Assembly (NCBI GenBank): GCA_965203875.1
Contig: OZ241914.1
Location: forward strand, 1,521,589 to 1,585,588
Direction of reading: 5' to 3'
Length of the DNA stretch: 64,000 bases
From: Bdellovibrionales bacterium
Lineage (GTDB): Bacteria; Bdellovibrionota; Bdellovibrionia; Bdellovibrionales; JAUICD01
Shown piece after piece: positions 8,832-57,705 of the stretch (positions are counted from its first letter, which is position 1; every line of letters starts with the position of its first letter). The notes under the pieces were generated by a model. The model made no database searches. It saw only the letters and a list, made by a program, of their open reading frames with translations, and had not been told where the DNA came from. The position numbers and the translations under genes were made by a program.

Positions 8832-9788
8832 ATGAGAACACCTGGTAACAAAGGTAATACAAATAATCAAAGAGACAATAAATCAAGGCACCCTATTCAT
8901 GATGCTGCTTTTAAGTTATTAGTAGAGCATGTTGATGTAATAGTTTCCTTAATAAAAGCTGCTGGTGAACAAAGCTGTAATAAGAAGGCTCTGCCATTAT
9001 TAAACATGCTAGATTTAAATACTGTAAAAATAATTAAGAGCAATTTTATCTCTAAGTCCATGAAAGAATTTAAGTGTGATGTTGTAATATCGGTTAAGTT
9101 ATTTGGCTTTGACGAATGGTTTAAAATAGTGCTTATATTTGAACATAAGTCATATAAGGATTCTAAGGTATATATTCAGAGTTTAGGTTATTTATATGGA
9201 TTTATTTCATCATCAGAGCACGATGGAAAATCTGTTCCTATTCCTTTTATAGTTACTAATGCTCGTTCTAAGAGTAAATTTCCAAACAGCTTTAGAGAAG
9301 CAGAGTTTGCTATGTTGGCCAAATATTTTATCAAGCATACACCCAACAAAATAAAATGATCTTACTAAATTCTTTTATAGTCTACCTTGAGAGCTGCACA
9401 ACTTTTTTAATAAATGCACCCTAGCTTCGCTAAGACCTTCGGTCTAACCGCTTCGCTAATTAAATATTAGATAACAGAAGAGACTTGTTATAATTGCAAA
9501 TATGCTGATGAAGAGTTATTATTGAAGTTGGAGGCTGAGGTGCTTAAGGAAGAGGACAGATTTATGAAATATGGATTTACGGCTCTTAACAAAAAAGGCA
9601 TACAGCAAGGGCTGAAGCAAGGTTTAGAGCAAGGTAAGCAGGAAGGTTTAGAGCAGGGTAAGTATGAAATAGTCGTAAAAATGTTAGCTAACGGCTTAAA
9701 CACCAAAACCATCTCTAGCTACACCGGTCTTTCAGAAAAAGATATTAAGAACATCAAATATAAGCCAAAGAATGGCTCATCTTCTTAA
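8832..9788 (+). pseudogene. Rpn/YhgA-like PD-(D/E)XK nuclease gene, split, with the middle replaced by repeat DNA
   Basis: N-terminal piece 8832-9359 (HDAAFK, CDVV...FEHKSY); C-terminal piece 9522-9788 (QGLEQG repeats, helix-turn-helix-like tail YTGLS); repeat DNA about 9312-9476 between them. Confidence 0.8.
9351..9476 (+). repeat. structured intergenic repeat, copy A
   Basis: tagtctaccttga...tttttaataaatgcaccctagcttc...agacc-ttc-ggtct...gcta. Confidence 0.8.
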
Positions 9789-9835
9789 AAGAAGATAACT
9801 GCATTCCATTACTTCTCGAGCTACTCTACACCGAC

Positions 9836-10103
9836 AAACAATAAGACCCTAAGCAAATATTTTTGTAGTACACCTTGAATGTTGGATAACATTTTATCAA
9901 ACTCTAACTTAGCTTCACTTTCGACCTTTGGCCTAACCACTACGCTAGTGTACATTTATTAAAAACTTTAGAGACTTTCAAAAAGTCTGTTGGAATATAC
10001 CTTGAACGTTGGGCAACGTTTTTAATAAGCACACATCAGCTTCACTTTGACCTACGGTCGGGCCGTTTTGCTATGTATGCTTATTAAAAACGAAGACCTT
10101 TAA
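9836..10103 (+). repeat. structured intergenic repeat, tandem copies B and C
   Basis: caccttgaatgttgg / taccttgaacgttgg heads about 127 bp apart; copy C stem 10019-10036 pairs with 10073-10090. Confidence 0.85.
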
Positions 10104-10190
10104 GGACCTTAGTCTATGCACTTACAAGTGCCAGAGTAACTGATTGATAATACATAGCTAAATAATATAAATTATAACCCAGGTATTTAT

Positions 10191-11813
10191 ATGAAAAGTG
10201 TAGCTATAGACATCGGTTCTTACTCTATAAAAATAGCAGATTTAGAATCTAACAAAACAGGAAACTATCAGATAAACGAATGCCTAGAGATAACTACACC
10301 CACAGATGAAAGCGACCGTCTATCATTCCTGGAACAAACTTTAAAAAAAATTGCACACCATTACCAAAAACAGTCAGTAAGATACGTACTACAAGTAAAT
10401 CAAAAATACATAGGCACACAATACTGCTCCTTTCCAATAAAAGAAAAACACAAGATAATAAAGAGCTTACCTTTCCAACTAGCAGAAGACGTTCCATTTA
10501 ACTCGAACAATATGGTATACGAATCTAAGTTTCTGGCTTCAGTAGGAAACAACACAGAACTACTAGCTTTAATAGTAAATAAACAACATGTAGCAGAAAT
10601 TTTGGAACTAGTAAGAGATTGTGGAATAGAACCAGATATTATAACCGCACCATCGATTGCACTATCTAACTTTATTTCCGACTGGTCAGGATCTATACCT
10701 AGCTCCAAACGCCCTTTACTTACTCAAAGCAACTACCAAAGCGATGAACAAATAACACCATCCAAAGTAATAATGGATATTGGGCATAAAACAACAAACA
10801 TAATGATCCACATAAACGGCTCAATCGTACAAAGTAACACAATATTTTTTGGGGGATCAGATATTATAGAAGACCTGGCCAAAGCATACCAGCTTCCAAA
10901 CAACGAAGCCACACAACATCTGATCGAAAAAGGCTTTGTACTAGCATCAGAAGAAAATGCATCAGAAAACCAAGTATTTTTCTCAAACACTATCAAAAAA
11001 AGTGTAAAGGCAGGACTAATAAAGCCAGCAGACCAAATCTTTCTATCGGCCAAAAGCAAAACACAACTATCTTTAGAAAGTATCCACATTGCAGGCGGTG
11101 TAGCAGGGCTTACAAATTTAACAGACTATCTAACAAAAGAATTCAATATAGAAACATACGTGTTACACAGTGGTAAACTAGAATCCAAATTCAATAATGC
11201 AGTTGCGATGGCCATCGAAGGATTTAGAACTCCTAAAAATCCTCCAGTTAATTTCATAAAAGATGAGCTGTCACCAAAAAGCCAATTTTTCTACAATCTA
11301 TGGAAAGCATACGGTCATATGATAAGAGTAGGAGCAGTTTGTGTATTATTACTCTTTATCCATGGCATTGTAAAAGGACACTTTGCTGACAAACTTTCAA
11401 ACGAAGGCTACGAAAAATTGCAAAAACTGGCAAAATCCTCAGATTTTAAAATCAAAAAACCATCCGCCAGTAAAATAAATAGGTTTGTAAAAAACAAATC
11501 TAAAGAAATAAAATCTTTAGACGAATTATCCAAGCTTACTAAAAGCAAATCAGCCATAGAAATACTAGAAGAAATAAGCGTGGGAATACCTAGCAAAAGA
11601 AAAATTAAGCTAGATGTAAAAAAACTAACAATCCAAAACAACAAAGTAAATATACAAGGTTTAGTAGATAATCAAAATCAACAACAGTCTCTTTTGATAG
11701 CTCTAAGAAATATGTCCAGTAACAAAAAGGTTGTCACTACTCAACCACAATTTACAACAAACGATCCTACTAAAATTGCATTTGCATACACATTTAGTGT
11801 AGGAAATAAGTAG
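10191..11813 (+). CDS. gspL: type II secretion GspL / PilM-like actin-fold protein
   Basis: IDIGSYSIK, MDIGHKTT, IAGG actin-like motifs, one TM helix and a periplasmic domain. Confidence 0.75.
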   Translation: MKSVAIDIGSYSIKIADLESNKTGNYQINECLEITTPTDESDRLSFLEQTLKKIAHHYQKQSVRYVLQVNQKYIGTQYCSFPIKEKHKIIKSLPFQLAEDVPFNSNNMVYESKFLASVGNNTELLALIVNKQHVAEILELVRDCGIEPDIITAPSIALSNFISDWSGSIPSSKRPLLTQSNYQSDEQITPSKVIMDIGHKTTNIMIHINGSIVQSNTIFFGGSDIIEDLAKAYQLPNNEATQHLIEKGFVLASEENASENQVFFSNTIKKSVKAGLIKPADQIFLSAKSKTQLSLESIHIAGGVAGLTNLTDYLTKEFNIETYVLHSGKLESKFNNAVAMAIEGFRTPKNPPVNFIKDELSPKSQFFYNLWKAYGHMIRVGAVCVLLLFIHGIVKGHFADKLSNEGYEKLQKLAKSSDFKIKKPSASKINRFVKNKSKEIKSLDELSKLTKSKSAIEILEEISVGIPSKRKIKLDVKKLTIQNNKVNIQGLVDNQNQQQSLLIALRNMSSNKKVVTTQPQFTTNDPTKIAFAYTFSVGNK

Positions 11814-11815
11814 CC

Positions 11816-12532
11816 ATGCTAGAAAATTTAAAAAATACAATCCTAGCAAGATTAAATACTTTTCAAGATTCTGCCATCTATATAGCACTAGAAGAAAAGT
11901 ACGATAGATTACAACCATCACAACAGTTAATGATAAAACTAGGATCGACCCTGTTAATATTTGCAAGCGTTTTTTTAATAATTCAATCGTTATTTTCAAA
12001 CGCTTCAACTAAAATTGAAGATTTTAACAATAGCAGAGCATTGATTAGCAAATTAAGTAACTTGAAAACTAGCATGAACAGTAGCCCATTAGTACCAACA
12101 ACACCTGGAAGATCCGAACTTATACAAAGAATCAACTCAGCAGTTCAAAGTTCAAATGTAGCGTCTCAACAAATAATAAACATAAGTAATGCCAATATAA
12201 AAAAAGATATTAAAACTTCATCCTTGGATACTTCTGGCATTGAAGTAAAACTAAAAACATTAAACTTAACTCAAATCGCAGATGTAGCATCTAAAATACA
12301 AGATATTTCTAGTTCCATAAAAATTGTCTCTGTTGACATATCAAATAGTACCGAAGAACCTAGATATTTTGATGTTAATTACAAGATAGCTGCCTTTTAT
12401 CCAAAAGTTGCAAAAATAGAACCAGATGATGATAAAGAAGATAAAAAATCTAAAAGACGCAAGAAAAGAAGAGTTAAAAATAGAGACAAAGATAAAGACG
12501 AAGAAGAAGGTAAAGAAGAAGACAAAGAATGA
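11816..12532 (+). CDS. gspM: type II secretion GspM-like protein
   Basis: One N-terminal TM, periplasmic domain, position after gspL; charged low-complexity tail. Confidence 0.6.
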   Translation: MLENLKNTILARLNTFQDSAIYIALEEKYDRLQPSQQLMIKLGSTLLIFASVFLIIQSLFSNASTKIEDFNNSRALISKLSNLKTSMNSSPLVPTTPGRSELIQRINSAVQSSNVASQQIINISNANIKKDIKTSSLDTSGIEVKLKTLNLTQIADVASKIQDISSSIKIVSVDISNSTEEPRYFDVNYKIAAFYPKVAKIEPDDDKEDKKSKRRKKRRVKNRDKDKDEEEGKEEDKE

Positions 12533-13476
12533 AGTTTATCAAACCTATTATAAACATAATAAAATTTCATAAAATGAAAATAATTTTTTCTTTTGGATTA
12601 TTTATTTTATTTTTTATAGTTTTTTTTCCAAGAGAAGATCTATCAGCATTTATCTCTGGTAAAATAAGCAAATTGACCAATAATAGTATTATAATAGGCT
12701 TTGACAATATGAATTTTGATATTATTCCTTCACCTAGAATAAATTTTCAAAAGGTCAAGCTATCAACATCGGTTATTCAAGGTATAGAAGCAGAAAGACT
12801 AACCCTTTCCCCGTCTATTGTTTCACTACTTACTTTAAAGCCAGGTGCTTCTGTTTTCCTTAACGGTTTTTTTGACGGAAGTGCTATGCTAGGTTTTACA
12901 TCTAGCTTACCAACAGATGATGGCCAAGACATTTCACTAAATATTAATATCAATTCTATTAACATAGGTGAATTGACCAGCCTATTAAAACTACCAGCTA
13001 ATATTTCTGGCAAAATGAGTCTAAATGCAAAAGGCAATACCATAACAACAATGGATAGACAGCCAACATTCAACATAGGCTTGAAATTAAACAGTACACA
13101 ATTAACCAGCATATCAATACCAACACAAATAGGGCCGCTTGCTATTCCAAATATAACTTTGAATGCACTTTCATCACAAATAAGGCTAGATAAAGGCAAA
13201 CTACAAATTTCGTCTTTAAAAATAGATAATCGTAGCAGCATATACGGAAATGTAACCGGTACAGTTGATTTAGAATTTAAAAGTGGAAGAAGAGGTATAA
13301 GCCCACAGATGGGTGTGTACGACCTGAGATTCAATCTTGGTTTAACACCTGCCCTAGAACAAGAGATGAAAATTTACTTGGACGCTCTTGGGCTTTCAAA
13401 ATATAAAAAGGGCGGTATATATCAATTTATAGCAAACGGTACACCTTACGGTATACCTAGCATACGAGGTATGTAA
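12529..13476 (+). CDS. gspN: type II secretion GspN-like protein
   Basis: N-terminal TM ending FP, beta-rich body, C-terminal G-T-x-x-x-P; follows gspLM. Confidence 0.65.
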   Translation: MKFIKPIINIIKFHKMKIIFSFGLFILFFIVFFPREDLSAFISGKISKLTNNSIIIGFDNMNFDIIPSPRINFQKVKLSTSVIQGIEAERLTLSPSIVSLLTLKPGASVFLNGFFDGSAMLGFTSSLPTDDGQDISLNININSINIGELTSLLKLPANISGKMSLNAKGNTITTMDRQPTFNIGLKLNSTQLTSISIPTQIGPLAIPNITLNALSSQIRLDKGKLQISSLKIDNRSSIYGNVTGTVDLEFKSGRRGISPQMGVYDLRFNLGLTPALEQEMKIYLDALGLSKYKKGGIYQFIANGTPYGIPSIRGM

Positions 13477-14192
13477 GCGGTAAACAACACAGAAATTTCA
13501 TACAACAAAATCATAGGGATCATAAAAAACAGCATACTTACTACATCAGGTGGAGTTGCAAATGAAGATATACAAGCAAGTATGATGTATGCATAGCCTC
13601 GATTTTTCTTTAAAAACTTTTTATCTACAATACCCAATATACTTAAACCTGTTAATACCAGAGGTAGCTCAAAAGCTAAGCCAAATATTAAAACAGTGGT
13701 GGTAAAAAATGATAGGTAATGGTTTATAGATATCATAGGTATATCTTTTCCATCACCAAAGTTTAATAAAAATTTAAATGCAATTGGATATATCACAAAA
13801 TATACGAATAAAATCCCTAAAAGAAATAAGAAACTACCAAAACCAACAAAAAATATAGTAATTTGTCTTTCGTTTTTATATAAGCCTGGAGAAATAAAAT
13901 TCCAAACTTGATATATCCAAAACGGGCAAGTGAAAATAACACCCCCAAGTAAAGCTATTTTCATATGAGCAAAAAATTTATCTGTTACACCAGTGTATAT
14001 CAAGCCTCTTGTGTCGGTGCCCAAGTAAGCAGATATAGGACTCCTGACAATGGAAAATAATAAATCATCAAAGAGCCAGCAAACCAAAGTTCCTACAGAA
14101 ATTATTAGGATTGATCTTATAAGTACTGATCTAAGCTCTCCAAGATGAGATAACATTCCATCATTTTTGTCTGTATTAGTATCGCTATTCAT
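13446..14192 (-). CDS. tatC: twin-arginine translocase TatC
   Basis: HLGELR, FISPGLY, FELP, TPPD. Confidence 0.95.
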   Translation of the reverse strand: MNSDTNTDKNDGMLSHLGELRSVLIRSILIISVGTLVCWLFDDLLFSIVRSPISAYLGTDTRGLIYTGVTDKFFAHMKIALLGGVIFTCPFWIYQVWNFISPGLYKNERQITIFFVGFGSFLFLLGILFVYFVIYPIAFKFLLNFGDGKDIPMISINHYLSFFTTTVLIFGLAFELPLVLTGLSILGIVDKKFLKKNRGYAYIILACISSFATPPDVVSMLFFMIPMILLYEISVLFTAYIPRMLGIP

Positions 14193-14196
14193 ATCA

Positions 14197-14406
14197 TTAA
14201 GCCTTATCTATTTTATCTATTTGGTTTGTAGGTTTTTCTTTTTTAAAACTGAAGTCTAAATTTTTAGATACTTCAGTTATTACGCATCTAAGATCACTAA
14301 TAAGCCTAGCAATTATTTTGGAGGTACTTAAAAGATCTTTAGGGCCAAGCAATAATAGTGCTATTATAAAAATAGTCAGTAACTCTATGGTGCCAATACC
14401 AAGCAT
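14197..14406 (-). CDS. tatB: TatB/TatA family subunit
   Basis: GIG-x-x-ELL...LLGPKDL directly upstream of tatC. Confidence 0.7.
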   Translation of the reverse strand: MLGIGTIELLTIFIIALLLLGPKDLLSTSKIIARLISDLRCVITEVSKNLDFSFKKEKPTNQIDKIDKA

Positions 14407-14437
14407 AGTATGTATTTACATACTTAAGATAAGTTTT

Positions 14438-15031
14438 TCAAGAAAATGATCTACCTTCTGGTATATTTAAGCCTTCTTCAATTAGCTTATTCTTTGCTAT
14501 GTTGGATCCTGTCATAAGATATTTTTCATACAGCCTTAAAACATCTTCATCCGACTGTAAATTCACTTTCAGGCTTATGTAAGTCAGCAGCTCTACAAAA
14601 TTCATAAATTTTTCTGCAAATTCCTTATATAGTTCAGAAAAAGTTGGCTCATTTACGCTGTTAGCAAGCGTGCCATATGCACTCTCTCCAACATTAGTGT
14701 AATAATCTATATCAATTAGTTTTCTATTGAGTGAATCACCAAAAAAACCGCTAACATACAAAGTAGTGTCAGCTAATTTTTTTAGTATTTTAATATGTTC
14801 ATTAGACGATGAAGTTGCCTGTAACAACAATTCTGCTAGAGTATTAGATTGTGTATTCTGATCGATTTCCTCAACAGATGGTACAGAGCTTAAAAAGCTA
14901 TCCATCAAATCAACTAGATAGTAACTGGCAGTTTCTGATGGTTGAAATCTTATCTTGGTTTTTCCCTCATTGATCATCTCGAAGAAAAAAACCTTTGATG
15001 AGGTATAGATGTCGTCATGTGAGAAAGTCAT
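14438..15031 (-). CDS. conserved-looking hypothetical protein
   Basis: GGAGG SD; LADTTLYVSGFFGDSL...DIDYY; function unknown. Confidence 0.7.
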   Translation of the reverse strand: MTFSHDDIYTSSKVFFFEMINEGKTKIRFQPSETASYYLVDLMDSFLSSVPSVEEIDQNTQSNTLAELLLQATSSSNEHIKILKKLADTTLYVSGFFGDSLNRKLIDIDYYTNVGESAYGTLANSVNEPTFSELYKEFAEKFMNFVELLTYISLKVNLQSDEDVLRLYEKYLMTGSNIAKNKLIEEGLNIPEGRSFS

Positions 15032-15115
15032 ATACCTCCTCTATTTAGAAATGCTAGCATAAATGAAAAAATCATAAATAGAATATTTTGGCACTTAGAC
15101 CAAAGTCCAAGCTTA

Positions 15116-17668
15116 TTATTTACTATATACGACTAAAACTTCCTTGGAGGAAAAAATACGAGATGCAAGGTATTTTACTTGTGCACTTTTGACTGATTTA
15201 ATTTTGTTAGGATATTCAAACAAATATTTATCATCCAATCCTAACATTTTATTACTTAGGATTAATGAACTAATGGACGAATTTCTTTGTATACCTATTT
15301 GATAACTGCCTATTAGATATTTTTTTGCACCTTCTAATTTTTCTTCCTGTATGTCTTCTGTTATTTTTTTCAATTCAGTTCTTATCATAGAAATTGCAGT
15401 TTCTACTTTACTAGGATCACAAGCTATATAGACCGCAAAAAAACCTCCGTTCAAACCTAAAAATGTAACAGGGCACACTGTGTACGCTAAAGAAGCTTTA
15501 TCCCTTAGTTCTAAAAATAAACTACCACCTTGGCCGGATAACATTGCCTCCATTACTTTAAATGCGTACACAGCATTATCCAATACACTAATGGATTGAA
15601 AACCCAAAACCACGTGTGCTTGTGGTTTGTCAATTTTGTGAAAAACCTTTTTAGGCTCTATGAGCCGTTTAACATTTGGAAGATCATACACTTCGCCACT
15701 AGTGCACTTTATGCTGTTGACAAAATTTTGATAAACTTGGGCTTTGCCATTTCCTACAACTGAAATGTAAGGGTTTTTCATAAAAGTACGCCAATAATCT
15801 AAAACATCTTCTTTTTTTATATTGCTTATTGAAGTTAGATTTCCTAGTACGTCTTTTCCGTAAGTGTGTTGAAAAAATACATTTTTAACAAAGTCTGTTA
15901 TAGCTAACTTAGACGGATTATCTTCTAATGACTTTAGGTATTGCTGTATCTTAAGCTTTTCCCTATCCAGAATAGTATGATTAAATTTTGGTTTTAAAAG
16001 TATAGATTTTAATATTTTTATAAAATCATCAACATATGCAGTTAGAGTCACAACCGAAATCCCAAAAGCATTTTTGGTACAAAATGTTGTTAATGATGAA
16101 GCCCTACTATCTATAAACTCCTTTAGTTTAACTTCTGTCATATCCTGAGTTTCACAGATGGCCATCCTAGATGAAATAAGAGACAGCCCACTAAGCCTAC
16201 TACTCTCGTAACCAACACCACCTTTAAAGCCTACTGATATACTAACAGTGGGTGTACTGGTATTTGAATAAAACGAAGATTTAGAACTTAAAAAATAAAA
16301 TTTGGATTCCTTTGAAGTTGGTTCAAATGAACTGATACTTGCTTTTGGCTTTGATACACTTAACTCTTTCGGCTTAAGAACATTAGATAATTGAAAGCCT
16401 ATTTCATATCCATCACACCAATCTTGAAGCAAGCTGTTCATGTTTTTTTTATTAGTAATTGAAGATATAGTAACCTGATCTGGATTCAAATAAGAACCCA
16501 CTCTTAATATGTCATTTGTTGTAACCTGACTTGCTTTTTTTAAATACTTATCAAAATAATTTACATCTTGTGACATATGATAGTAGAAACCATATTTTCT
16601 AGACAAACCGTCCACGGTTTCCATCGCATAAAATTCTTCACTTTCTATCATACGTAAAGCTTTTACAAGCTCATCATCTTGGACAAAATTTCCAAGTACA
16701 TCTAATAGCTCTTCTCCTATTGCACATATTGCATCGGATACGTCTTGTTCAACAATTTTACATGATACCAAAAAAATACCATGATCTTTTAGCATGTATA
16801 TACCTGAGCTAACGGAAGATGCCAGAGGTTTAGCTTGTAACATCAAAGCTTTATGCAAACGTGAACTGTTAGAATATCCTAAGATTAAAGATAGCATCTC
16901 TAATGCTGGTGTATCTGGATGATCTAAAGTTGGAATAGGCCATGTGAAGTTAATTCTAGTTTGCTTGAATTTGGTTTGATCAACTGCGATTTTAGCTTTT
17001 AGCTTGGCTGGTTCTGGTGCTCGTTTTATTGTTTTTATATCACCGCTATTTTGACTAAAGATATCTAGTTTTTTCTTCATCTTCTGCGAGTCAAAATCTC
17101 CAGATACAACGATAGTTATATTTTCTGCACAATAACGATTGTTGTAGTAAGAGAGTATTTTTTTCCTTGAGAAGTTTTTTATATTTGATGGTTTCCCTAG
17201 TATAGGTCTGGAATAAGGGTGCGATTTAAACATTGATGAAAAGATCAGGTCACTAGCTGTACTACCAGGGCTGCCCTTTGATCTCTTAATTTCTTCTATG
17301 ACTACTTCTCGTTCTGCATCTATATCATCTATGTTAAAGCTAGGATGTATAACCATTTCTTTTATTACATCTAAGGCAACATCTTGGTAAGAACTGGCGA
17401 TTGTCACGTAATAGACGGTATGATCAAAGGAAGTGTAGGCATTTAATTCCCCACCCGAACTTTCCACAATAGAAGCTATTTCTCCTAAGGCATATTTTTT
17501 AGTACCTTTGAATAAAAGGTGTTCTATGAAGTGAGTTATACCAGATTCTGATTCTCTTTCGTCAGCACTACCTGTATTAATCCAAGCCTGCACAGAAACG
17601 ACTGGAGATTTACTTTCAGGTATTAAAATCACATTTGTTTTATTTTTTAATTTATATTTATGAATCAT
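15116..17668 (-). CDS. M16 (insulinase/pitrilysin) zinc peptidase
   Basis: HFIEH (HxxEH), NAYTS, second degenerate half with ELRDK...LAY. Confidence 0.92.
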   Translation of the reverse strand: MIHKYKLKNKTNVILIPESKSPVVSVQAWINTGSADERESESGITHFIEHLLFKGTKKYALGEIASIVESSGGELNAYTSFDHTVYYVTIASSYQDVALDVIKEMVIHPSFNIDDIDAEREVVIEEIKRSKGSPGSTASDLIFSSMFKSHPYSRPILGKPSNIKNFSRKKILSYYNNRYCAENITIVVSGDFDSQKMKKKLDIFSQNSGDIKTIKRAPEPAKLKAKIAVDQTKFKQTRINFTWPIPTLDHPDTPALEMLSLILGYSNSSRLHKALMLQAKPLASSVSSGIYMLKDHGIFLVSCKIVEQDVSDAICAIGEELLDVLGNFVQDDELVKALRMIESEEFYAMETVDGLSRKYGFYYHMSQDVNYFDKYLKKASQVTTNDILRVGSYLNPDQVTISSITNKKNMNSLLQDWCDGYEIGFQLSNVLKPKELSVSKPKASISSFEPTSKESKFYFLSSKSSFYSNTSTPTVSISVGFKGGVGYESSRLSGLSLISSRMAICETQDMTEVKLKEFIDSRASSLTTFCTKNAFGISVVTLTAYVDDFIKILKSILLKPKFNHTILDREKLKIQQYLKSLEDNPSKLAITDFVKNVFFQHTYGKDVLGNLTSISNIKKEDVLDYWRTFMKNPYISVVGNGKAQVYQNFVNSIKCTSGEVYDLPNVKRLIEPKKVFHKIDKPQAHVVLGFQSISVLDNAVYAFKVMEAMLSGQGGSLFLELRDKASLAYTVCPVTFLGLNGGFFAVYIACDPSKVETAISMIRTELKKITEDIQEEKLEGAKKYLIGSYQIGIQRNSSISSLILSNKMLGLDDKYLFEYPNKIKSVKSAQVKYLASRIFSSKEVLVVYSK

Positions 17669-17767
17669 GAGTTGAACAATCCAAAGTTGACAAATTCAAG
17701 TAAGTAAAAAATTAAAGTAACCAAAGTCTACTTGATTTTTTCATAGTTTACCACATATATTTCCAAC

Positions 17768-18901: not shown

Positions 18902-19527
18902 AAACTAATACAAAAGATGACACAAACAATTCTGATATAGAGGCTGAAGCTAACGAACAGCCTAAATCTGAAGAGACTGTCAGTAACAATGACAGTCCAG
19001 ATGAATCTAATGACACCATAAGCATAAATAAAAAAGAATACGATAAACTTGTAGCTGATCTTGAAAAACAAAAAAAAGATTACTTATATCTCTACGCAGA
19101 GATGGACAACCTGAGGAAGAGAACAGTAAAAGAGCGGACCGATTTGATAAAATATGGAACTCAAAATGTATTTACTAGTCTTTTAGATATTGTGGATAAT
19201 TTCCAAAGAGCTTTGTCAGCCAAAGTTGACAAAGATAATGAGCAGTCTTTTTTAGACGGTGTTAAGTTAATTAACGAATTATTACTAAACCTTTTAAAAG
19301 AATTTTCGGTAACTGAAGTTGCGTCTTTAGGTGAAGCTTTTGACCCAACAGTGCATGAAGCTATAGGAACGGAGCCTTCTGATACCGTACCAGAAGGACA
19401 TATTTGTAAAGTTTTAGTAAAGCCATATAAATTACACGACAGAACTATAAGAGTAGGCCGTGTGATTGTGGTTAATAACCAAAATGAGAAAAACTCTGAT
19501 TTATCTACAACATCTGAAGATCAATAA
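18898..19527 (+). CDS. grpE: nucleotide exchange factor GrpE
   Basis: AEMDNLRKR, FDPTVHEA. Confidence 0.95.
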   Translation: MKTNTKDDTNNSDIEAEANEQPKSEETVSNNDSPDESNDTISINKKEYDKLVADLEKQKKDYLYLYAEMDNLRKRTVKERTDLIKYGTQNVFTSLLDIVDNFQRALSAKVDKDNEQSFLDGVKLINELLLNLLKEFSVTEVASLGEAFDPTVHEAIGTEPSDTVPEGHICKVLVKPYKLHDRTIRVGRVIVVNNQNEKNSDLSTTSEDQ

Positions 19528-19528
19528 A

Positions 19529-21490
19529 ATGGGCAAACTGATTATTATAATTCTATCCCTAAGCATAGCATCCTGTGCACTCGTCCCAAGAGAGGAGCTA
19601 AATGCTCCAGAACGATTAGAGCTGAACAAAATAAAAGATACAGACAAAGAAGATGGACATGAAAAAAGACTTTTAGAATTTACCAAGAAATATCCCAACA
19701 GTTACCATGCACAGGAAGTATATTTTGAATTGGGAAATATTGCTTTTAATAGAAAAGATTTTTTAATGGCGGATAAACATTATAGTCAAGTTAAAAAAAG
19801 AAAACTATATGACAAAGCTAGAGTGCTAAGAGCACATGCTTTACTTAAATTAAATAAAACACAAGAGGCATACTCTATAGTAGCAGAACTTGTTAAAAAT
19901 AATAGATTAGATAAAAATGTAATGTATTATGCTATATCCATAAAAGCCATGCTTGCTGAGAAGATAGAAACTACTAATGAAAGACTTCTAACTTATGATC
20001 GCCTATTAACTGCTGCTAAAGATATAAAGCCTAAGTATGATGATTATCCATCCACAACAAATGATTGGGACTTTACCTCTGATCCTTTAAAATACAGAAT
20101 AAAAGCTATTCAAATAATTGATTCTTTAGAAATTAATAATTTAACTGATATAGACTTATCTTATAAACTGTTAAAGGCTCATTTATTTTTTAGGTTAGGC
20201 AATTTTTATTTTGAACAATCAGAATTTGACAGAGCTAGAATTTATTTAAATAGAGCCATGCGGTTGGATGATGGAGAATATAGAGAGAAGTCATCACATT
20301 TAATTTCTAAAATACTTGCAAAAGGTAAAGTAAATAGGAAAACAATAGGAGTTGTATTGCCCATTAGTGGTGAACAAAATGCCTATGGGCATATGGCTCT
20401 TTTGGGATTAAATGCAGCGTTTGGAACCTATGATTCTGATAACAATTCTGATTATAAAATAGTTGTAATGGATAGCAAAAATAATGAGTCGGTTGCAGGT
20501 AGGGCTGTTGAAACGCTTGTTTTAGATCATCATGCTGTAGCTGTTATAGGTGGGCTGCTTAGTAAAACTGCTGATATTATTTCAACAAAAGCACAGGAGT
20601 TAGAGGTAGTAAATATAACATTATCTCAGAAAGATGGGATAACAGATATTGGTGATTACATATTTAGAAGTGCAATGACTTTGAGTGATCAAATAGATTT
20701 TTTGGTTAGAACTGCTATTAATAAACATAATATAAAGAACTTTGGCATGCTTTATCCCAAAACAAAGTATGGTGAAGATAGCAGTCTTATTTTTTTACAA
20801 ACTGTTTTAAAGAACGGGGGTAATTTGTTGGCCGCCCAATCTTATGAACATTCAGAAACAGATTTTTCTGAACACGTAAAAAAATTGATAGGTACTTATT
20901 ATATCAAAGATAGAATGACAGAGTATAAAACTAAGTTAGATGAATGGAAAACTAACAACCCACATATGAGTGCAAGAACACAGCCTCCTGCAGATCTTTT
21001 GGAGCCAATAATTTCATTTGATGCTTTATTTATTCCTGATGATGTAAAAGCTCTTGGTCAAATTGCTCCCATGCTTACTTACAATGATGTAGATGATGTA
21101 GTGCTGCTTGGAACAAACCTCTGGAATACACCCTCTTTAAAAAGTAGGGTTGCAGGAGATACAAGGTTGATTTATGTGGATAGTTTTACTTCTGAAACCC
21201 CATCATTTTCGACGTCCAAATTTAGAAAGGATTTTTTAAGTACGTTTAATAAAGAACCTACCATTATAGAATTGCAAGCATATGATGCTGGTGTATTTTT
21301 AAAAGCAGCGTTGGATAAATTAAGGGTAAATTCAAGAAAAAAACTAAGGGATATTATGTTAGATTTAGATGAAATACCTGGAGCTTTAGGTTTTCTAAAA
21401 GTGCAAAAAGATACTGGTGCAATAGAACGACCGCTTGTGGTTTTAAACCATGGTCAGGAAGAAACCACCGAAGACAGTAATAATAATTAA
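19529..21490 (+). CDS. LpoA/LppC-like penicillin-binding protein activator lipoprotein
   Basis: Lipobox SIASC from ATG 19529, TPR-like region, periplasmic-binding fold IGVVLPISG...FDALFIPD. Confidence 0.75.
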   Translation: MGKLIIIILSLSIASCALVPREELNAPERLELNKIKDTDKEDGHEKRLLEFTKKYPNSYHAQEVYFELGNIAFNRKDFLMADKHYSQVKKRKLYDKARVLRAHALLKLNKTQEAYSIVAELVKNNRLDKNVMYYAISIKAMLAEKIETTNERLLTYDRLLTAAKDIKPKYDDYPSTTNDWDFTSDPLKYRIKAIQIIDSLEINNLTDIDLSYKLLKAHLFFRLGNFYFEQSEFDRARIYLNRAMRLDDGEYREKSSHLISKILAKGKVNRKTIGVVLPISGEQNAYGHMALLGLNAAFGTYDSDNNSDYKIVVMDSKNNESVAGRAVETLVLDHHAVAVIGGLLSKTADIISTKAQELEVVNITLSQKDGITDIGDYIFRSAMTLSDQIDFLVRTAINKHNIKNFGMLYPKTKYGEDSSLIFLQTVLKNGGNLLAAQSYEHSETDFSEHVKKLIGTYYIKDRMTEYKTKLDEWKTNNPHMSARTQPPADLLEPIISFDALFIPDDVKALGQIAPMLTYNDVDDVVLLGTNLWNTPSLKSRVAGDTRLIYVDSFTSETPSFSTSKFRKDFLSTFNKEPTIIELQAYDAGVFLKAALDKLRVNSRKKLRDIMLDLDEIPGALGFLKVQKDTGAIERPLVVLNHGQEETTEDSNNN

Positions 21491-21560
21491 TCTAGAGCTG
21501 TATGTATTTTATTAAAAGCCTTGTTCTTGCTTATTTTGTATATTTCAGTATTATGTTTTT

Positions 21561-22490
21561 ATGAGCATAAACAATGATCGAGGTTTTTTTGTTGTATTGA
21601 TGGTGGCTTTGGTATCATTTGCACTTTGGGCTACGATGTCTACTATGCACATATATTCTGTGAATAAGATGGAAGCTCATGCTAAGGCAAAGGAAGCTAA
21701 TGAGATGTATAATACTCTGTCTGATTTTGCAGCAGAGGCTCAGGCTGGTTATTATAGGAGTGTTATAGAAAATCAGGGTGAAGAAGGTGATGAATGCCCT
21801 GGTGACTACCAGAACTGTACTTTGGATGAGGGGGGGGGCACTAAGCCTAATCTTTGTCTTAAGGAAAAAAGCTGTAACACTTGTTTAGATGCTAGTAATG
21901 GTAAGAATGTGGTGGAGTATTGTGGTAATTTTTTTGGATTTAGTGGTAAGGATGATCTTGGAGACTGTTCTGATCCTAAAGTTTTATGTGTTGCTGCCAG
22001 TATAGATGTTGCGGATAGGAAGAATCCTCCTTCATCATCTGATCTTAAAGATTGTGATACATGTTTTGTTCAGCCGTTTAAAATTTTTGTAGATACACCA
22101 GGAGTAACTAATACTACCGAAACTACTGAAGGTCCTGACTGTTCATCTATCTGTATGGGATCATCTCATCCGTATACTTCCAATAGGAATCTCTGCGTTA
22201 CAGGTCATCAGGAATCTGATGGTTGCACTTGTTACAAAGGAACATCGTATAATCCATCTAGTCCAGATACATGTGGTGCAAGTTGTACGAATGGGCAATA
22301 TTCAGAAGGTGAAAAATGCCCAGATAACTACCCATGTGTTAGAGAAAATAATAGCTATTCCTGTGGATGTAAGCTGTCTTCTCAATGTGAGAAAAGCCAG
22401 GTATGCTGTTTAAACGGACGTTGTGTCAAGCCTGATAATGCTAATAATTTACCAGGACAATTAGAACCTGCTGAGTGTTATATGAACTAA
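21561..22490 (+). CDS. Cys-rich exported protein with prepilin-like N terminus
   Basis: NDRG|FFVVLM hydrophobic leader; many Cys; G9 tract at 21830-21838. Confidence 0.7.
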   Translation: MSINNDRGFFVVLMVALVSFALWATMSTMHIYSVNKMEAHAKAKEANEMYNTLSDFAAEAQAGYYRSVIENQGEEGDECPGDYQNCTLDEGGGTKPNLCLKEKSCNTCLDASNGKNVVEYCGNFFGFSGKDDLGDCSDPKVLCVAASIDVADRKNPPSSSDLKDCDTCFVQPFKIFVDTPGVTNTTETTEGPDCSSICMGSSHPYTSNRNLCVTGHQESDGCTCYKGTSYNPSSPDTCGASCTNGQYSEGEKCPDNYPCVRENNSYSCGCKLSSQCEKSQVCCLNGRCVKPDNANNLPGQLEPAECYMN

Positions 22491-22503
22491 TCAGACATTT
22501 TAT

Positions 22504-22691
22504 AAAATTGAAAACCTTTAGATAATCTTTCGGAGTATACCTTGAACGTTGCTTGGGATTTTTTGATAAGTACACACTAGCTTCACTTTGACCTACGGTC
22601 GGGCCATTACGCTACGTGTACTTATCAAAAACTTTAGAGCCTTAAAATTGAAAACCTTTGGCTGTTGGTTAACATTTTTAATAAGCATACA
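22504..22691 (+). repeat. structured intergenic repeat, copy D plus a partial copy
   Basis: Perfect 16-bp inverted repeat tttttgataagtacac (22560-22575) / gtgtacttatcaaaaa (22616-22631); inner gacc-tac-ggtc. Confidence 0.85.
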
Positions 22692-22790
22692 ATGATGACA
22701 ATAATGAATCCAGACTTGTCATGAACCTAAACATGTTCTGTTGTTGCAAACTGACCTAAACTTTAGCCTAACTTTAGGTGGATAATTTGT

Positions 22791-22825
22791 TTGACAAAAA
22801 TGGGGGGGGGGGGGGGGGGTAGGCT
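22791..22825 (+). promoter_or_regulatory. sigma70-like promoter with G18 tract in the spacer
   Basis: TTGACA 22791-22796, AAAAT, G18 at 22802-22819, TAGGCT 22820-22825. Confidence 0.6.
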
Positions 22826-22970
22826 ATTTTTTGAGCAACTTTTTTTATTGGCAATTAGGCCTTCATATGAGTAAAGAATGTTTTTAAATGATTTACTAAA
22901 ATTAAGTTTTTATAAGTCGTCTTGTATATTGTTTGCCAGTTTATTTTTAGACTACTGTTGAGAAAAAACT

Positions 22971-24644
22971 ATGAGTAAAATAAAGTATGTTTTTTGTATT
23001 GCAGCTATTGGTTCTACAGTTTTCTTATATCAAAATTGTGCGGATCAATCATTTACAGTAACCCAGTCTTCTGTAGATTATTCAACAAGTATGTCACCTA
23101 GTTGTATAGGAGATAATAATTTAATAATAGTTAGTATCGATCAAGACATAGAAGGTGAAATATCATTTGAGTGTAAAGACAGTAATACAGAATTTGTAAA
23201 TTGTAATAATTATGATTTAGATGGCGGTGTTGTAAAGGCATCTGACGGCAATCTTGTTTTTAGCCAGTTAGATAATGATTCTTACTCGCTTACAGTACAA
23301 ATGTTAATTACACCTGACAATGGTGATACAGTCAGAGATACGTTTGAAATAAATTTTGAACGTTGCGAATCTGAAACAAACACTCAAAGTACAGCCACTA
23401 CAGAAACTACATCTACCACTGAAACCACAACAGATACAACTGAATGTATAACCTGCTTAAGTCGTATAACAGATTCTACTTGTCAAGTATGCTCTAACCC
23501 TAATAGCTGTACTGAAACTCCTATTGCTAAAACTATAAGTTGTGGTTCTGAAGGTATGTCGGCCTATCCATTGTCTACCGAACCAACCTGCCCTACTGGT
23601 AATAGAATATTATGTAATAAAACCTGTTATAGAGGAGGATCTGCTACTTGCACAGCTGATCCTTCAACTTGCACTACATGTCCTAATGGTGAATGTGGTC
23701 AGCCTCAAACAGGTCAAACTTGCTCTAGCCGAATAACCGATTCTGCTTGTCAAGTATGCTCTAATCCTAACAGTTGTAGCGAATCTCCTGTTGCTAAAGC
23801 TATAACTTGTGGTTCTGGAGATATGTCGGCTTACCCACTATCTACTAGACCTGCTTGCCCTACAGGAGAACTTACTTTATGTGGTACGACTTGTTATAGT
23901 GGAGGATCTATTACTTGCACAGCCAATTCTGCAACCTGCACCACATGCCCTAATGGTGAATGTGGTCAGCCTCAAACAGGTCAAACTTGCTCTAGCCGAA
24001 TAACCGATTCTGCTTGTCAAGTATGCTCTAATCCTAACAGTTGTAGCGAATCTCCTGTTGCTAAAGCTATAACTTGTGGTTCTGGAGATATGTCGGCTTA
24101 CCCACTATCTACTAGACCTGCTTGCCCTACAGGAGAACTTACTTTATGTGGTACGACTTGTTATAGTGGAGGATCTATTACTTGCACAGCCAATTCTGCA
24201 ACCTGCACCACATGCCCTAATGGTGAATGTGGCCAGCCTCAAACAGGACAAACTTGCTTAAGTCAAATAACCGATTCTACTTGTCAAGTATGCTCTAACC
24301 CTAACAGTTGCAGCGAATCACCTTCTAATAGAACCATAACTTGTGGTTCTGAGGATATGGCAGCTTATCCGTTATCTTCAGAACCTGTTTGTGTAACTGA
24401 TAGTAGAACATCATGTGGAATAACTTGTTATCAGGGGCGTTCTTTTAAGAAATATACAAGATGTAGCTGTGAAGATTGTGATCTGACAAGTCTATGTTGG
24501 TTTGAAACTTATAATGCTAACTGTGGATATGAATGTCCAACTGGAATTTCTAATAACCCACATAATGGCTTCAGCTGTCCCGCACGTGGAGTTACTCCAC
24601 CAAATTGTTATGATATTTTAGACAACTTAGCTCCTTGCAGATAA
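22971..24644 (+). CDS. Cys-rich repeat lipoprotein-like surface protein
   Basis: Leader ending FLYQNC, Thr/Glu linker, about 3.7 copies of an 89-aa 12-Cys unit. Confidence 0.8.
   Translation: MSKIKYVFCIAAIGSTVFLYQNCADQSFTVTQSSVDYSTSMSPSCIGDNNLIIVSIDQDIEGEISFECKDSNTEFVNCNNYDLDGGVVKASDGNLVFSQLDNDSYSLTVQMLITPDNGDTVRDTFEINFERCESETNTQSTATTETTSTTETTTDTTECITCLSRITDSTCQVCSNPNSCTETPIAKTISCGSEGMSAYPLSTEPTCPTGNRILCNKTCYRGGSATCTADPSTCTTCPNGECGQPQTGQTCSSRITDSACQVCSNPNSCSESPVAKAITCGSGDMSAYPLSTRPACPTGELTLCGTTCYSGGSITCTANSATCTTCPNGECGQPQTGQTCSSRITDSACQVCSNPNSCSESPVAKAITCGSGDMSAYPLSTRPACPTGELTLCGTTCYSGGSITCTANSATCTTCPNGECGQPQTGQTCLSQITDSTCQVCSNPNSCSESPSNRTITCGSEDMAAYPLSSEPVCVTDSRTSCGITCYQGRSFKKYTRCSCEDCDLTSLCWFETYNANCGYECPTGISNNPHNGFSCPARGVTPPNCYDILDNLAPCR
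23451..24432 (+). repeat. intragenic 267-bp tandem repeat
   Basis: Units start at 23451, 23718, 23985, 24252; units 2 and 3 are almost identical. Confidence 0.95.
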
Positions 24645-24657
24645 AAAAGCAACATAC

Positions 24658-24797
24658 AAAACGAAGGGCTTTATGACAGTTCTTTTATAGTCTACCTTGA
24701 ACGTTGGTAAACATTTTATCAAATAATAGCTATCTTCATTAAGACCTCCGGTCTAACCATTACGCTATCTATTATTTGATAAAATTGAAAACCTTTA
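24658..24797 (+). repeat. structured intergenic repeat, copy E
   Basis: Perfect 17-bp inverted repeat 24713-24729 / 24769-24785; inner agacc-tcc-ggtct. Confidence 0.85.
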
Positions 24798-24800
24798 ACT

Positions 24801-26114
24801 TTATTTTTTCCTGGTGAAAATTCTTATGGGAATACCAGATAACTTCCACTTTTTCTTTATCTCTTTTACCAAAAACCTCCTATACCTCTTAAGTAAAGGC
24901 TTGCTGTTATTAGTAAAAGCAATAAAGGTAGGCGGTACTTGCTTAGTCTGAACCACATAATACAACTTAACCCTACCACCAAGTATTCCTTGCTTTTTAT
25001 CTAAACTCAAAAAGAAATCATTTAACTTAGAAGTAGAAACCTTATGATTTAACTTATCCCAAATAATCTCTACAGTTTTAAATAAGTTCTTTACACCACT
25101 ACCATTCTTAGCACTAATAAATACCAACGGTATATCTTCAAAAAAAGCAAATACATCCTTTGCCTTCTGTCTAAAAGTTTTTCTAAAATCTTCAAACTTA
25201 TCTTTACCAATATCACTCTTATTGACTATTAAAATCACAGGTTTATGCAAACTCAACACATTGCTCACCAACCTGGCTTCTTGATGCCCAATACCTTCCA
25301 TGCAATCTAACAACAGCAAAATAATATCAGCACGCTCAATAGATTTTTCTGATTGAATACTTGATAATTTCTCAAGACCAGTTTTTCTCTTAGCCTTCCT
25401 TCTTATACCCGCAGTGTCCACCAATTTATATTTTTTATTTTCAAACTCAACAATGCTATCCACACTATCAGTCGTAGTACCAGGAATATCAGTTACAATC
25501 ATACGATCATAACCATTTATAAAATTACAAAGTGTACTTTTCCCCGCATTAGGCTTACCTATTATTGTTAATGTTTTCATCTTTTCGTCATCTGACAATG
25601 ATTCTGAAACATTATTTTGAGTACAAACTTTTGTTGCTATCCAATCCAGAATATCTGTAATACCCACTTTATTTTCAAAAGAAGCACTTAGCCAAACATC
25701 ATTTAGTTCATAAAAATCTGTTTTAATTGATTCAGATTCTTTGTAAGAGTCTACCTTGTTAATGACAAAAAAAATTTTACTAGATAATTCTTTAGCAAGT
25801 CTTACAACGTATTTATCTTCTGGATGAATGCCAAATTTACCGTCTACGATAACTATCAGAGCATCTACTTCTGTTAATAAATTTAGTATCTTTCTTTCAA
25901 TCTCTTGGCTAAATAGATCATCTGTTTTACTTAAACCACCTGTATCAATAATTTCAAATTGCTTTCCCAGCCAGGTGGCGTTGGATATTTTGATATCTCT
26001 AGTTGTACCTGGTTGATTTTTTACAAGTGCTCTTTTTGAATCTATAATTTTATTAAATAATGTAGATTTTCCTACATTAGGTCTTCCGATTATAGCAACC
26101 TTTGTTAACATCAC
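24801..26114 (-). CDS. der: ribosome biogenesis GTPase Der
   Basis: Two G domains GRPNVGKS and GKPNAGKS, DTGG/DTAG, KH-like tail. Confidence 0.96.
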   Translation of the reverse strand: MMLTKVAIIGRPNVGKSTLFNKIIDSKRALVKNQPGTTRDIKISNATWLGKQFEIIDTGGLSKTDDLFSQEIERKILNLLTEVDALIVIVDGKFGIHPEDKYVVRLAKELSSKIFFVINKVDSYKESESIKTDFYELNDVWLSASFENKVGITDILDWIATKVCTQNNVSESLSDDEKMKTLTIIGKPNAGKSTLCNFINGYDRMIVTDIPGTTTDSVDSIVEFENKKYKLVDTAGIRRKAKRKTGLEKLSSIQSEKSIERADIILLLLDCMEGIGHQEARLVSNVLSLHKPVILIVNKSDIGKDKFEDFRKTFRQKAKDVFAFFEDIPLVFISAKNGSGVKNLFKTVEIIWDKLNHKVSTSKLNDFFLSLDKKQGILGGRVKLYYVVQTKQVPPTFIAFTNNSKPLLKRYRRFLVKEIKKKWKLSGIPIRIFTRKK

Positions 26115-57687: not shown

Positions 57688-57705
57688 GAAGCTCAAACTT
57701 CCAAT

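Follow-up and report, generated by a model that had tools for sequence, protein, structure and literature searches.

The window, a 64,000-nt stretch located at 1.52-1.59 Mb of the genome under study (G000), carries several copies of a palindromic repeat termed family 1, together with elements of two other repeat families and their flanking genes (Table 1). Gene calls were ORF-based and made for this analysis, and at least one real gene was missed. The segment 9522-9788 resembles, by eye and by general features of the family, the C-terminal remainder of the Rpn-like gene split by copy A, and presumably represents it.

Table 1. Repeats and flanking genes in the 64,000-nt window (positions are those of the window).
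Feature	Coordinates	Strand	Evidence and remarks
Rpn/YhgA-like PD-(D/E)XK nuclease gene, N-terminal fragment (175 aa)	8832..9359	+	PF04754, E=3.4e-13, profile 3-122 of 203
Repeat copy A, family 1	9359..9485	+	nhmmer 93.1; splits the Rpn-like gene into two pieces
Two repeat copies in head-to-tail order, B (9846-9976) and C (9973-10101)	9846..10101	+	nhmmer 87.5 and 102.7
PilM/FtsA-like gene, right flank of A-C	10191..11813	+	Pfam PilM_2; silent sites C/A-rich, fading downstream
309-aa ORF, left flank of D	21561..22490	+	G/T-rich; no Pfam match; segment missing from G001
Repeat copy D, family 1	22515..22643	+	nhmmer 91.3; a partial copy follows near 22664-22691
Family-3 element containing a stretch of ~20 G	22789..22869	+	nhmmer family 3; upstream of ORF 22971-24644
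Repeat copy E	24666..24796	+	nhmmer 91.6; lies between der (-) and ORF 22971-24644 (+), which converge
der (EngA GTPase), right flank of E	24801..26114	-	Pfam MMR_HSR1 (two) and KH_dom-like; 3' part C/A-rich on + at silent sites
Repeat cluster F: partial, full and partial family-1 copy	57454..57693	+	nhmmer 23.0, 104.0 and 39.8
Family-2 long hairpin (~80 nt), abuts cluster F	57703..57788		Inverted repeat; nhmmer family 2, both strands
gloB (hydroxyacylglutathione hydrolase), right flank of F	57815..58597	-	Pfam Lactamase_B and HAGH_C; C/A-rich on + at silent sites

An earlier note had claimed that strand composition flips from G/T-rich to C/A-rich across these repeats. Its hand counts were exact (G36/C16 at 9061-9240, G30/C54 at 10261-10500 and G59/C29 at 21541-21780); taken singly, these segments are modest outliers among same-length windows in + strand genes (top 4.5%, bottom 0.3% and top 6%, respectively). 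At fourfold-degenerate sites the right flanks in the window are strong and the left flanks weaker. The keto index along the PilM/FtsA-like gene, whose Pfam match (PilM_2/FtsA) does not bear out the label gspL given before, is -0.44, -0.45 and -0.37, compared to -0.16, -0.19 and -0.11 at the aligned fourfold sites of its orthologue in G001, a relative of the same genus (sister species). At aligned fourfold sites it is -0.45 in the 3' part of der (24801-25300) vs -0.09 in G001 and -0.47 in gloB vs -0.02; both genes are thus C/A-rich on + at silent sites, but, contrary to what the earlier note implied, they lie on the minus strand, and their raw C-richness on + is partly the usual bias of the coding strand. 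On the left, the fourfold keto index is +0.32 across 1 kb next to D and +0.25 next to E. No G/T bias was found at fourfold sites left of F, in agreement with the exception already noted for the gene left of 57450, and the left flank of A-C is the fragment of an Rpn-like gene, a family that is G/T-rich in sense regardless.

Family 1 is a ~125-nt palindromic unit with 238 nhmmer matches in 114 clusters, three of which lie within called genes, in the 1.60-Mb genome (completeness figure 93.75%). The copies have a median length of 124 nt, stems of roughly 18-20 bp and a median DNA-folding energy of -17.8 kcal/mol (-8.5 for shuffled copies). They are over-represented in convergent gaps (28/111, compared to 19/192 divergent gaps). 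Family 1 belongs to the descriptive class of REP/BIME-like intergenic palindromic repeats: as with REP, BIME and REPIN elements, its units are short, palindromic, intergenic, multi-copy, found singly or as head-to-tail arrays, and restricted to the lineage. In contrast with REPIN/RAYT systems, no Y1 (RAYT-type) transposase (PF01797) was detected in either of the two genomes. No mutational scar flanking REPs was described in the REP literature searched.

The asymmetry is real and extends far beyond the window. At fourfold sites the + strand is G/T-rich left of the clusters and C/A-rich on their right: the GC skew is +0.22, +0.14, +0.14 and +0.12 over 0-1500 nt left of the 114 clusters and -0.16, -0.10 and -0.03 on the right, the AT skew mirrors this pattern, and repeat-free gaps stay near +0.03/-0.02. 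The L-R index had a mean of +0.181 and was positive at 78 of 100 scored clusters, the flip being absent or reversed at 22%, whereas 654 repeat-free control gaps gave a mean of -0.005 with 47% positive (Mann-Whitney p=2.5e-12); in such a metaplot, which the earlier note had proposed, the sign change at repeats far exceeds that at random intergenic regions. The sign does not depend on gene strand, as had been suggested: 72-82% of clusters were positive in all four classes of flanking-gene orientation, divergent gaps included. It was likewise unchanged with repeat orientation (80% for + repeats, 77% for - repeats), on the two replichores (76% and 80%) and whatever the copy number per cluster (1, 2 or at least 3). 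When paralogous DNA was removed and only genes with an orthologue were retained, the effect became stronger (GC skew +0.285, +0.238, +0.172, +0.118 and +0.084 on the left; -0.179, -0.136 and -0.052 on the right); non-core ORFs showed no flip (n=11). The decay is exponential, with an amplitude of 0.241+/-0.014, a length of 1161+/-160 nt and a baseline of about 0, and the signal has vanished by ~2.5 kb; this extent fits a resection tract, which spans about 1-2 kb to either side. An unbiased scan placed 15 of the 40 strongest positive flips, and only 1 of the 40 strongest negative ones, no more than 500 nt from a cluster centre, a zone that makes up 7.1% of the genome. No dose-response was seen with copy number, consensus similarity or hairpin energy (rho -0.14 to +0.06).

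Replication itself makes the leading strand richer in G than C and in T than A, with a sign change at origin and terminus. The replication skew of G000 has the same flavour, G+T enrichment of the more exposed strand, and cumulative skew places the origin near 0.29 Mb and the terminus near 1.06 Mb. However, a single origin and terminus contrast with 114 local, terminus-like flips on both arms, of a local amplitude several-fold larger than the replication skew (about +/-0.05 to 0.075 at fourfold sites) and decaying within ~2.5 kb. A single origin/terminus switch was rejected, as the earlier note had argued.

The asymmetry resides mainly at codon position 3 (L-R 0.290, compared to 0.077 at position 1 and -0.012 at position 2), and protein identity to G001 is 0.666 near repeats vs 0.669 at control gaps. 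On the strand with its 3' end toward the repeat, here called the exposed strand, fourfold-site frequencies are A.376, C.123, G.118 and T.382 far from the repeat and A.301, C.098, G.154 and T.447 near it. This strand loses A (-0.075) and C (-0.025) and gains G (+0.036) and T (+0.065), T/(C+T) going from 0.757 to 0.810 and G/(A+G) from 0.240 to 0.323, in all neighbour contexts and alike when it is sense or antisense. The asymmetry is mutational rather than selective in origin. Silent sites are saturated between G000 and G001 (43% identity), and mutation paths and rates are not polarisable from this pair. Strains ~1% divergent exist, with 597 differences counted.

The scar is specific to the lineage. 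At aligned orthologous sites the L-R index is 0.016 in G001 vs 0.181 in G000 (n=35 clusters, paired p=0.026). The repeat family of G001 itself (215 matches, 121 scored clusters) showed no flip (L-R -0.007, p=0.94), with a hairpin stability alike that in G000 (median -17.7 vs -17.8 kcal/mol). Because these equally stable repeats leave no scar, the hairpin is not sufficient, and we infer that a lineage-specific factor must take part. Synteny with G001 is broken at 43 of 96 core-flanked clusters, where the flip is strongest (mean 0.267, 85% positive). Syntenic sites also flip (0.145 and 0.149), which answers the objection that the flips could coincide with recent inversion breakpoints; 18 of the 53 syntenic gaps hold a repeat in G001 too.

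Around the repeats, there is a mirror-image, silent-site, lineage-specific composition gradient. Its best explanation, judged from sequence, is probably a recurrent exposure of single-stranded DNA beside the repeats, on the strand with its 3' end toward the repeat. Each cluster would be a place where the complementary strand is lost or synthesised late every generation, removal or delay beginning at the repeat and proceeding outward 5'-3' for ~1 kb in either direction; left of the repeat it would then be the + strand, and right of it the - strand, that is single-stranded more than elsewhere. Unpaired C and A would suffer damage (base loss, or conversion of C to U and of A to hypoxanthine) and be read as T or G, and the exposed strand would drift toward G+T wherever selection permits. 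The trigger may be paired nicks or a break at the repeat, after which the ends would undergo 5'-3' resection and be repaired from the sister. The earlier note had invoked deamination of 3' single-stranded tails: polarity, a scale of 1-2 kb and the confinement of the signal to silent sites agree with damage to such tails or to template gaps, but deamination alone does not account for the A to T type (purine-to-pyrimidine) shift, so that this interpretation is partly supported. G000 encodes RecA and an AddAB-like pair whose nuclease motifs are conserved. SbcD is the textbook hairpin nuclease and RecJ the textbook 5'-3' exonuclease; at the thresholds used, neither SbcD (PF12320, SbcD_C) nor RecJ was found in G000 or G001, and SbcCD-dependent breakage is accordingly not borne out. 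A literature search found no bacterial precedent for a mirror asymmetry flanking repeats.

Gene strand, replication arm, codon usage, mis-called genes, inversions or paralogous flanks could produce the flip as an artefact, or selection could underlie it, e.g. in terminator or rut-like zones at gene ends. Raw GC skew in the window does follow gene strand, der and gloB lie on the minus strand, repeats concentrate in convergent gaps and the Rpn-like paralogues are strongly skewed themselves. However, the polarity ignores transcription direction and is constant in the four orientation classes, the effect persists and grows without paralogous DNA and non-core genes, and the corresponding codons of G001 lack it, as do the surroundings of G001 repeats, examined with an identical pipeline. 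The coding strand is C- and T-rich at fourfold sites, from which a G+T/C+A mirror is impossible; inversions would give either sign and no decay over 1 kb; and a rut zone would be C-rich, whereas genes that run into repeats are G/T-rich in sense. The asymmetry is independent of orientation, copy number and replichore, lies at codon position 3 and is absent from G001 orthologues and repeats, and we therefore reject selection, paralogy, inversions and gene strand as its source; we regard an origin of this kind as very improbable.

The same strands as in resection would be exposed without breakage if hairpins stalled polymerases during ordinary replication, leaving a gap on the lagging-strand template back to the previous Okazaki fragment and on the leading-strand template forward to the next repriming. 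Polarity would be identical, the ~1.2 kb scale is Okazaki-like, and an event occurring every generation would more easily reach a skew several times that of replication; in E. coli, replicating palindromes are able to fold into hairpins on either template (PMC4245961). The signal is slightly stronger on the side nearer the origin (0.178 vs 0.129), but the difference is not significant (95% CI -0.030 to 0.126), G001 repeats fold as well yet are scar-free, and no relation to hairpin energy or copy number was seen. Stalling retains a modest chance, and we would rank a break or paired nicks with resection slightly above it. Alternatively, the sites rather than the repeats are causal: certain intergenic positions would be chronic fragile or recombination hot spots of this lineage, e.g. 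sites of repeated integration of new DNA, and would gather small mobile repeats of every kind. Three unrelated repeat families share loci and each is found at flips when alone (family 3 in 6/6 sites, family 2 in 2/2), so the site rather than the family-1 repeat may be what counts; the lack of dose-response with family-1 content, the strongest flips at synteny-broken clusters, the syntenic gaps with a repeat in both genomes and the absence from G001 of the segment 21.5-24.8 kb, beside D and E, point the same way. In contrast, repeat-free gaps of whatever length are flat (L-R means -0.001 to -0.036) and syntenic sites flip too. A causal role of the sites, which we hold to be quite unlikely, would alter the trigger and leave exposure of single-stranded DNA intact as the mechanism.

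Exposure of single-stranded DNA has parallels in known systems. At human meiotic DSB hot spots, single-stranded DNA lies on the forward strand left of the break and on the reverse strand right of it, C>N and A>N changes fall on the exposed strand and either side of the break is resected over 1-2 kb (Hinch et al. 2023, PMC7615360). Polarity and scale are as at G000 repeats. Those breaks are programmed by SPO11/PRDM9 and the mutations are de novo, whereas G000 is a bacterium with no known break-maker and its signal is an equilibrium-like silent-site shift at 114 clusters rather than observed mutations. In E. coli, a DSB provokes a 2-kb, DSB-centred mutation hot zone that needs end resection, and its mutations were ascribed to resection of the ends and filling of gaps (Shee, Gibson, Rosenberg 2012, PMC3607216). 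Common to both are a maximum in the first 2 kb and independence of replication and transcription direction; unlike here, the E. coli break is an experimental I-SceI cut under stress, DinB- and RpoS-dependent, and the abstract of that study mentions neither a strand-mirror composition footprint nor a natural repeat. Cleavage of palindromes by SbcCD (Azeroglu et al. 2014, PMC4245961) likewise involves palindrome hairpins on replication templates and a recurrent break repaired by recombination, but with a 460-bp construct compared to repeats of ~125 nt here, and neither genome has an SbcD_C match.

If the scar records exposure of single-stranded DNA, silent-site composition would provide a free genome-wide map of breaks or stalls for uncultivable bacteria, and small 'junk' palindromic repeats would alter the spectrum of mutations in essential genes at distances of up to 2 kb. 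Local skew flips are unreliable as markers of origin, terminus or inversion in repeat-rich genomes. The sister species, with similar repeats, no scar and one Rpn-like gene vs sixteen, constitutes a natural experiment for the factor turning a hairpin into a fragile site. Between the two genomes compared, the Rpn/YhgA-like family is expanded only in the scarred one (16 matches to PF04754, 1 in G001), the main gene-content difference noted, and is a candidate trans factor. On sequence grounds it is conceivable, though unlikely, that a lineage-specific nuclease cuts the repeats every generation, making them chronic self-repairing breaks and fixed local mutators of the core genes beside them, with this 16-copy PD-(D/E)XK family as the obvious candidate; a bacterial genome would then hold >100 centres resembling recombination hot spots, their activity legible from silent-site composition. 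The Rpn-like paralogues carry a strong skew of their own, and the flanks of the 16 genes showed no consistent flip. Five of the 16 lie at most 175 nt from a family-1 repeat, and four of these five are truncated.

The four family-1 clusters of the window, which hold copies A to F of a palindromic repeat, all lie on the + strand (table below). Cluster F is adjoined by a hairpin of ~80 nt belonging to a second repeat family, and a poly-G element, the third repeat family, is located downstream of repeat D. The raw GC skew of the window mostly tracks gene strand. The three hand counts of G and C reported in the earlier note were exact on recount, and when ranked among windows in + strand genes each is a modest outlier (tails of 4.5%, 0.3% and 6%); the der and gloB genes to which it also referred are actually on the minus strand, and its "gspL" is a PilM/FtsA-like gene. 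A strong positive flip (+ strand silent sites G/T-rich on the left and C/A-rich on the right) devoid of a family-1 repeat occurs at window position ~53212, between ORFs 52363-53202 and 53321-56731, and adjoins the C/A-rich stretch that had been flagged as repeat-free (window 53200-54300).

Family-1 repeats of the window, and fourfold-site skews (GC4, AT4) around family-1 clusters genome-wide
Feature	Position or flank	Strand or coordinates	Description or values
Repeat cluster A-C	9359-10101	+	family 1, ~125-nt palindromic
Repeat D	22515-22643	+	family 1
Repeat E	24666-24796	+	family 1
Repeat cluster F	57454-57693	+	family 1
GC4 skew	left, 0-1500 nt, rising distance	+ coordinates	+0.22, +0.14, +0.14, +0.12
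GC4 skew	right, rising distance	+ coordinates	-0.16, -0.10, -0.03
AT4 skew	left, rising distance	+ coordinates	-0.15, -0.11, -0.07
AT4 skew	right, rising distance	+ coordinates	+0.09, +0.11, +0.07
GC4 and AT4 skew	repeat-free gaps		within about +/-0.04

Three rounds of nhmmer seeded with the window copies identified 238 family-1 matches (116 on the + strand and 122 on the - strand) in 114 clusters across the genome holding the window (G000, a single contig of 1.60 Mb with 35% G+C, of which the window spans positions 1521589-1585588), and BLAST with the repeat in 40 related genomes gave no match outside it. The gene set comprised 1346 ORF-based calls, with at least one real gene missed, and provided 175,479 fourfold-degenerate sites. 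Over the whole genome C and T are enriched on the coding strand at these sites whereas genes have a positive total GC skew, so that raw and silent-site skew answer gene strand with opposite signs; the effect of replication at fourfold sites is merely ~+/-0.05 to 0.075. When fourfold skew was related to signed distance from the repeats, as the earlier note had proposed, the sign changed at the clusters and repeat-free gaps were nearly flat. For each cluster, a keto index, (G+T-C-A)/n, was calculated over 1 kb on each side and the right value subtracted from the left (L-R); 14 clusters had too few sites to be scored. The remaining 100 gave a mean L-R of +0.181, with 78 positive, compared to a mean of -0.005 in control gaps (47% of 654 positive; Mann-Whitney p=2.5e-12). 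With a baseline of zero, half of the left-minus-right difference decays with distance d as 0.241 × exp(-d/1161 nt). When flips were ranked in an unbiased scan, the top 40 of positive sign included 15 within 500 nt of a cluster centre, a zone covering 7.1% of the genome, and the top 40 of negative sign just 1; many of the negative flips are found 1-3 kb off a cluster and are the return stroke of the "sawtooth".

The sign of the flip is equal in every class of flanking-gene arrangement (75% positive for ++, 80% for --, 82% for +- and 72% for -+), repeat orientation (80% for +, 77% for -) and replichore (76% and 80%) and at every copy number, which excludes all four as its cause. No dose-response was seen between flip size and copy number, consensus score or hairpin energy (dG). 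Repeat-free gaps of every length show no flip, so the length of intergenic gaps is not responsible. Paralogous DNA accounts for 13% of the genome and 24% of the repeat flanks. It was removed, and the gene set was restricted to reciprocal best hits with the same-genus relative G001 (996 pairs). In this core set GC4 was +0.285, +0.238, +0.172, +0.118 and +0.084 on the left and -0.179, -0.136 and -0.052 on the right, with AT4 mirrored; as the filter enlarged the effect and cleaned the gradient, paralogous flanks or spurious ORFs cannot be its source. No clear effect was seen in non-core ORFs, where only 11 clusters were scorable. By codon position, L-R was 0.290 at position 3, with a weak effect at position 1 (0.077) and none at position 2 (-0.012), and protein identity to G001 did not drop near repeats.

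G001 is the sole same-genus genome among the 40 relatives searched; it is syntenic with G000 at a DNA identity of about 70-73% and was compared as a whole genome. BLAST with the family-1 repeat found no copy in G001, which carries a diverged ~125-nt sister family of its own (215 matches, which came to light only when a profile was iterated from five weak hits). Passed through the same pipeline, this family showed no flip (mean -0.007 over 121 scored clusters, of which 55% were positive; p=0.94), which excludes an artefact arising around any repeat. At aligned, amino-acid-conserved fourfold sites of the genes flanking G000 repeats, GC4 in G001 ranged from -0.02 to +0.10 on both sides, and per-cluster L-R was 0.016 compared to 0.181 in G000 (n=35, paired p=0.026); as the same codons of G001 lack it, the skew is no intrinsic property of the flanking genes. 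In predicted DNA hairpin energy the two families do not differ (-17.8 kcal/mol in G000 and -17.7 kcal/mol in G001), so a difference in hairpin stability between the species is also excluded. Because neither the repeats of G001 nor its aligned sites show the flip, this scar arose in the G000 lineage; it is attributable neither to the genes nor to hairpin repeats in themselves. With 43% identity at silent sites, the two genomes are saturated there, so that mutation paths are unreadable from their pair counts.

Coincidence of the flips with inversion breakpoints, raised in the earlier note as an alternative, was checked by synteny with G001. The strongest flip (0.267, 85% positive) belongs to the 43 of 96 core-flanked clusters lying at broken synteny; syntenic sites flip as well, more weakly (0.145-0.149), which excludes inversions or synteny breaks as the sole cause. 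A G001 repeat is also present in 18 of 53 syntenic gaps. Sites with family 1 only (59 scored) have a mean L-R of 0.188, and flips are also found at all six family-3-only sites and both family-2-only sites. From these flips, the synteny data and the shared gaps, the repeats may be markers of chronically fragile gaps rather than the cause. Within the window, segment 21500-24800 (ORF 21561-22490, repeat D, the poly-G element, a tandem-repeat ORF and repeat E) does not occur in the syntenic region of G001, in which the counterpart of gene 19466-21490 is followed directly by der. Window 8000-27000 is matched at ~99% identity by contigs from the public sequencing runs X6 and X7 and by lower-identity fragments from runs X1 and X2, whose populations are ~6-9% divergent; the repeat clusters are points at which these contigs pile up and break. 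Strains ~1% divergent from G000 are represented in runs X3-X7.

On the strand with its 3' end facing the repeat, fourfold composition changes monotonically from A.376, C.123, G.118 and T.382 at 3-5 kb to A.301, C.098, G.154 and T.447 at 0-300 nt. From far to near, T/(C+T) thus goes from 0.757 to 0.810, G/(A+G) from 0.240 to 0.323 and the purine share from 0.495 to 0.458. The shift is common to all 5' and 3' neighbour contexts, which excludes a motif-specific enzyme (deaminase or methylase context), and is alike whether the exposed strand is sense or antisense. It has the flavour of the leading-strand bias of G000 and is several-fold stronger.

Read from the polarity, it is the strand starting 5' at the repeat that is missing or late, which is equivalent to a block on synthesis directed towards the repeat. 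An origin, outward transcription and a fixed priming site would each predict the opposite polarity. A terminator-zone reading, which calls for a different polarity, does not fit either. Resection in the 5'-3' direction from a break or nicks at the repeat would give the polarity observed, as would polymerase arrest at the hairpin on both templates. The polarity matches that of human meiotic hot spots, where, in the part of PMC7615360 consulted, ssDNA is assigned to the forward strand to the left of the break and to the reverse strand to its right, with C>N and A>N mutations on the exposed strand within 2 kb. For E. coli, the abstract of PMC3607216 reports mutations that peak no farther than 2 kb from an engineered break and require end resection, and the abstract of PMC4245961 describes palindromes forming hairpins on both templates that are cut by SbcCD. 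SbcD was not found in G000 or G001, nor were RecJ and a Y1 transposase, and the asymmetry relative to replication direction was not significant (0.178 on the origin-proximal side versus 0.129). We have fair confidence that ssDNA is exposed recurrently and that this exposure is anchored at the repeat sites, and rank a break or nick followed by resection only slightly above replication gaps. A full-text literature search found no account of local skew anchored at repeats in bacteria, although absence is not thereby proven.

Loss of UDG, MutS, RecA or AddAB in G000 is excluded, as both genomes carry all of them, including an AddAB-like pair with intact, conserved nuclease motifs (the stop inside the AddA match is the gene's own); an apparent loss of RNase HII from G000 stemmed from a faulty gene call and was dismissed by a tblastn match at 72% identity. 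A Pfam scan of 113 of the 165 ORFs specific to G001 (at least 120 aa) revealed no DNA-repair or helicase gene missing from G000, and a Pfam scan of 117 G000-only ORFs gave many defence nucleases with no single obvious candidate. The main difference noted is in PF04754 (Rpn/YhgA-like PD-(D/E)XK nucleases), with 16 matches in G000 versus 1 in G001. Rpn proteins of E. coli are described, in the portions of PMC5350276 and PMC10400941 consulted, as toxic DNA endonucleases promoting RecA-independent recombination. Five of the 16 Rpn-like genes have a family-1 repeat no more than 175 nt away, and four of these genes are truncated; at window 8832-9788, repeat A splits one such gene into an N-terminal ORF of 175 aa and an ORF of 88 aa resembling its C-terminal part. 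Internally the family is strongly skewed, and the flanks of the G000 Rpn genes show no consistent flip. The Rpn link is a two-genome correlation, no more.

The genes found in G000 only are otherwise rich in defence systems, among them two Cas9 loci, Thoeris, Shedu, SIR2/HerA, several restriction-modification sets and a C5 methylase. The type II CRISPR-Cas loci, located outside the window, encode a 1037-aa Cas9 with Cas1 next to an array of 36-nt repeats and a 1583-aa Csx12-type Cas9 with Cas1 and Cas4, respectively; an SNF2-HNH/EH_Signature set, also outside the window, is likewise absent from G001. Many ankyrin-repeat proteins are present among the private genes of both genomes, which fits a host-associated life. 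Lastly, the poly-G element (~90 nt, with 13-23 consecutive G) occurs 17 times in G000, directly upstream of members of a 32-member paralogous family (~250-330 aa) that has no homologue in G001 and looks like a phase-variable multigene family; in window 22789-24644 the element stands ahead of ORF 22971-24644, in which a 267-nt unit is present four times in tandem.
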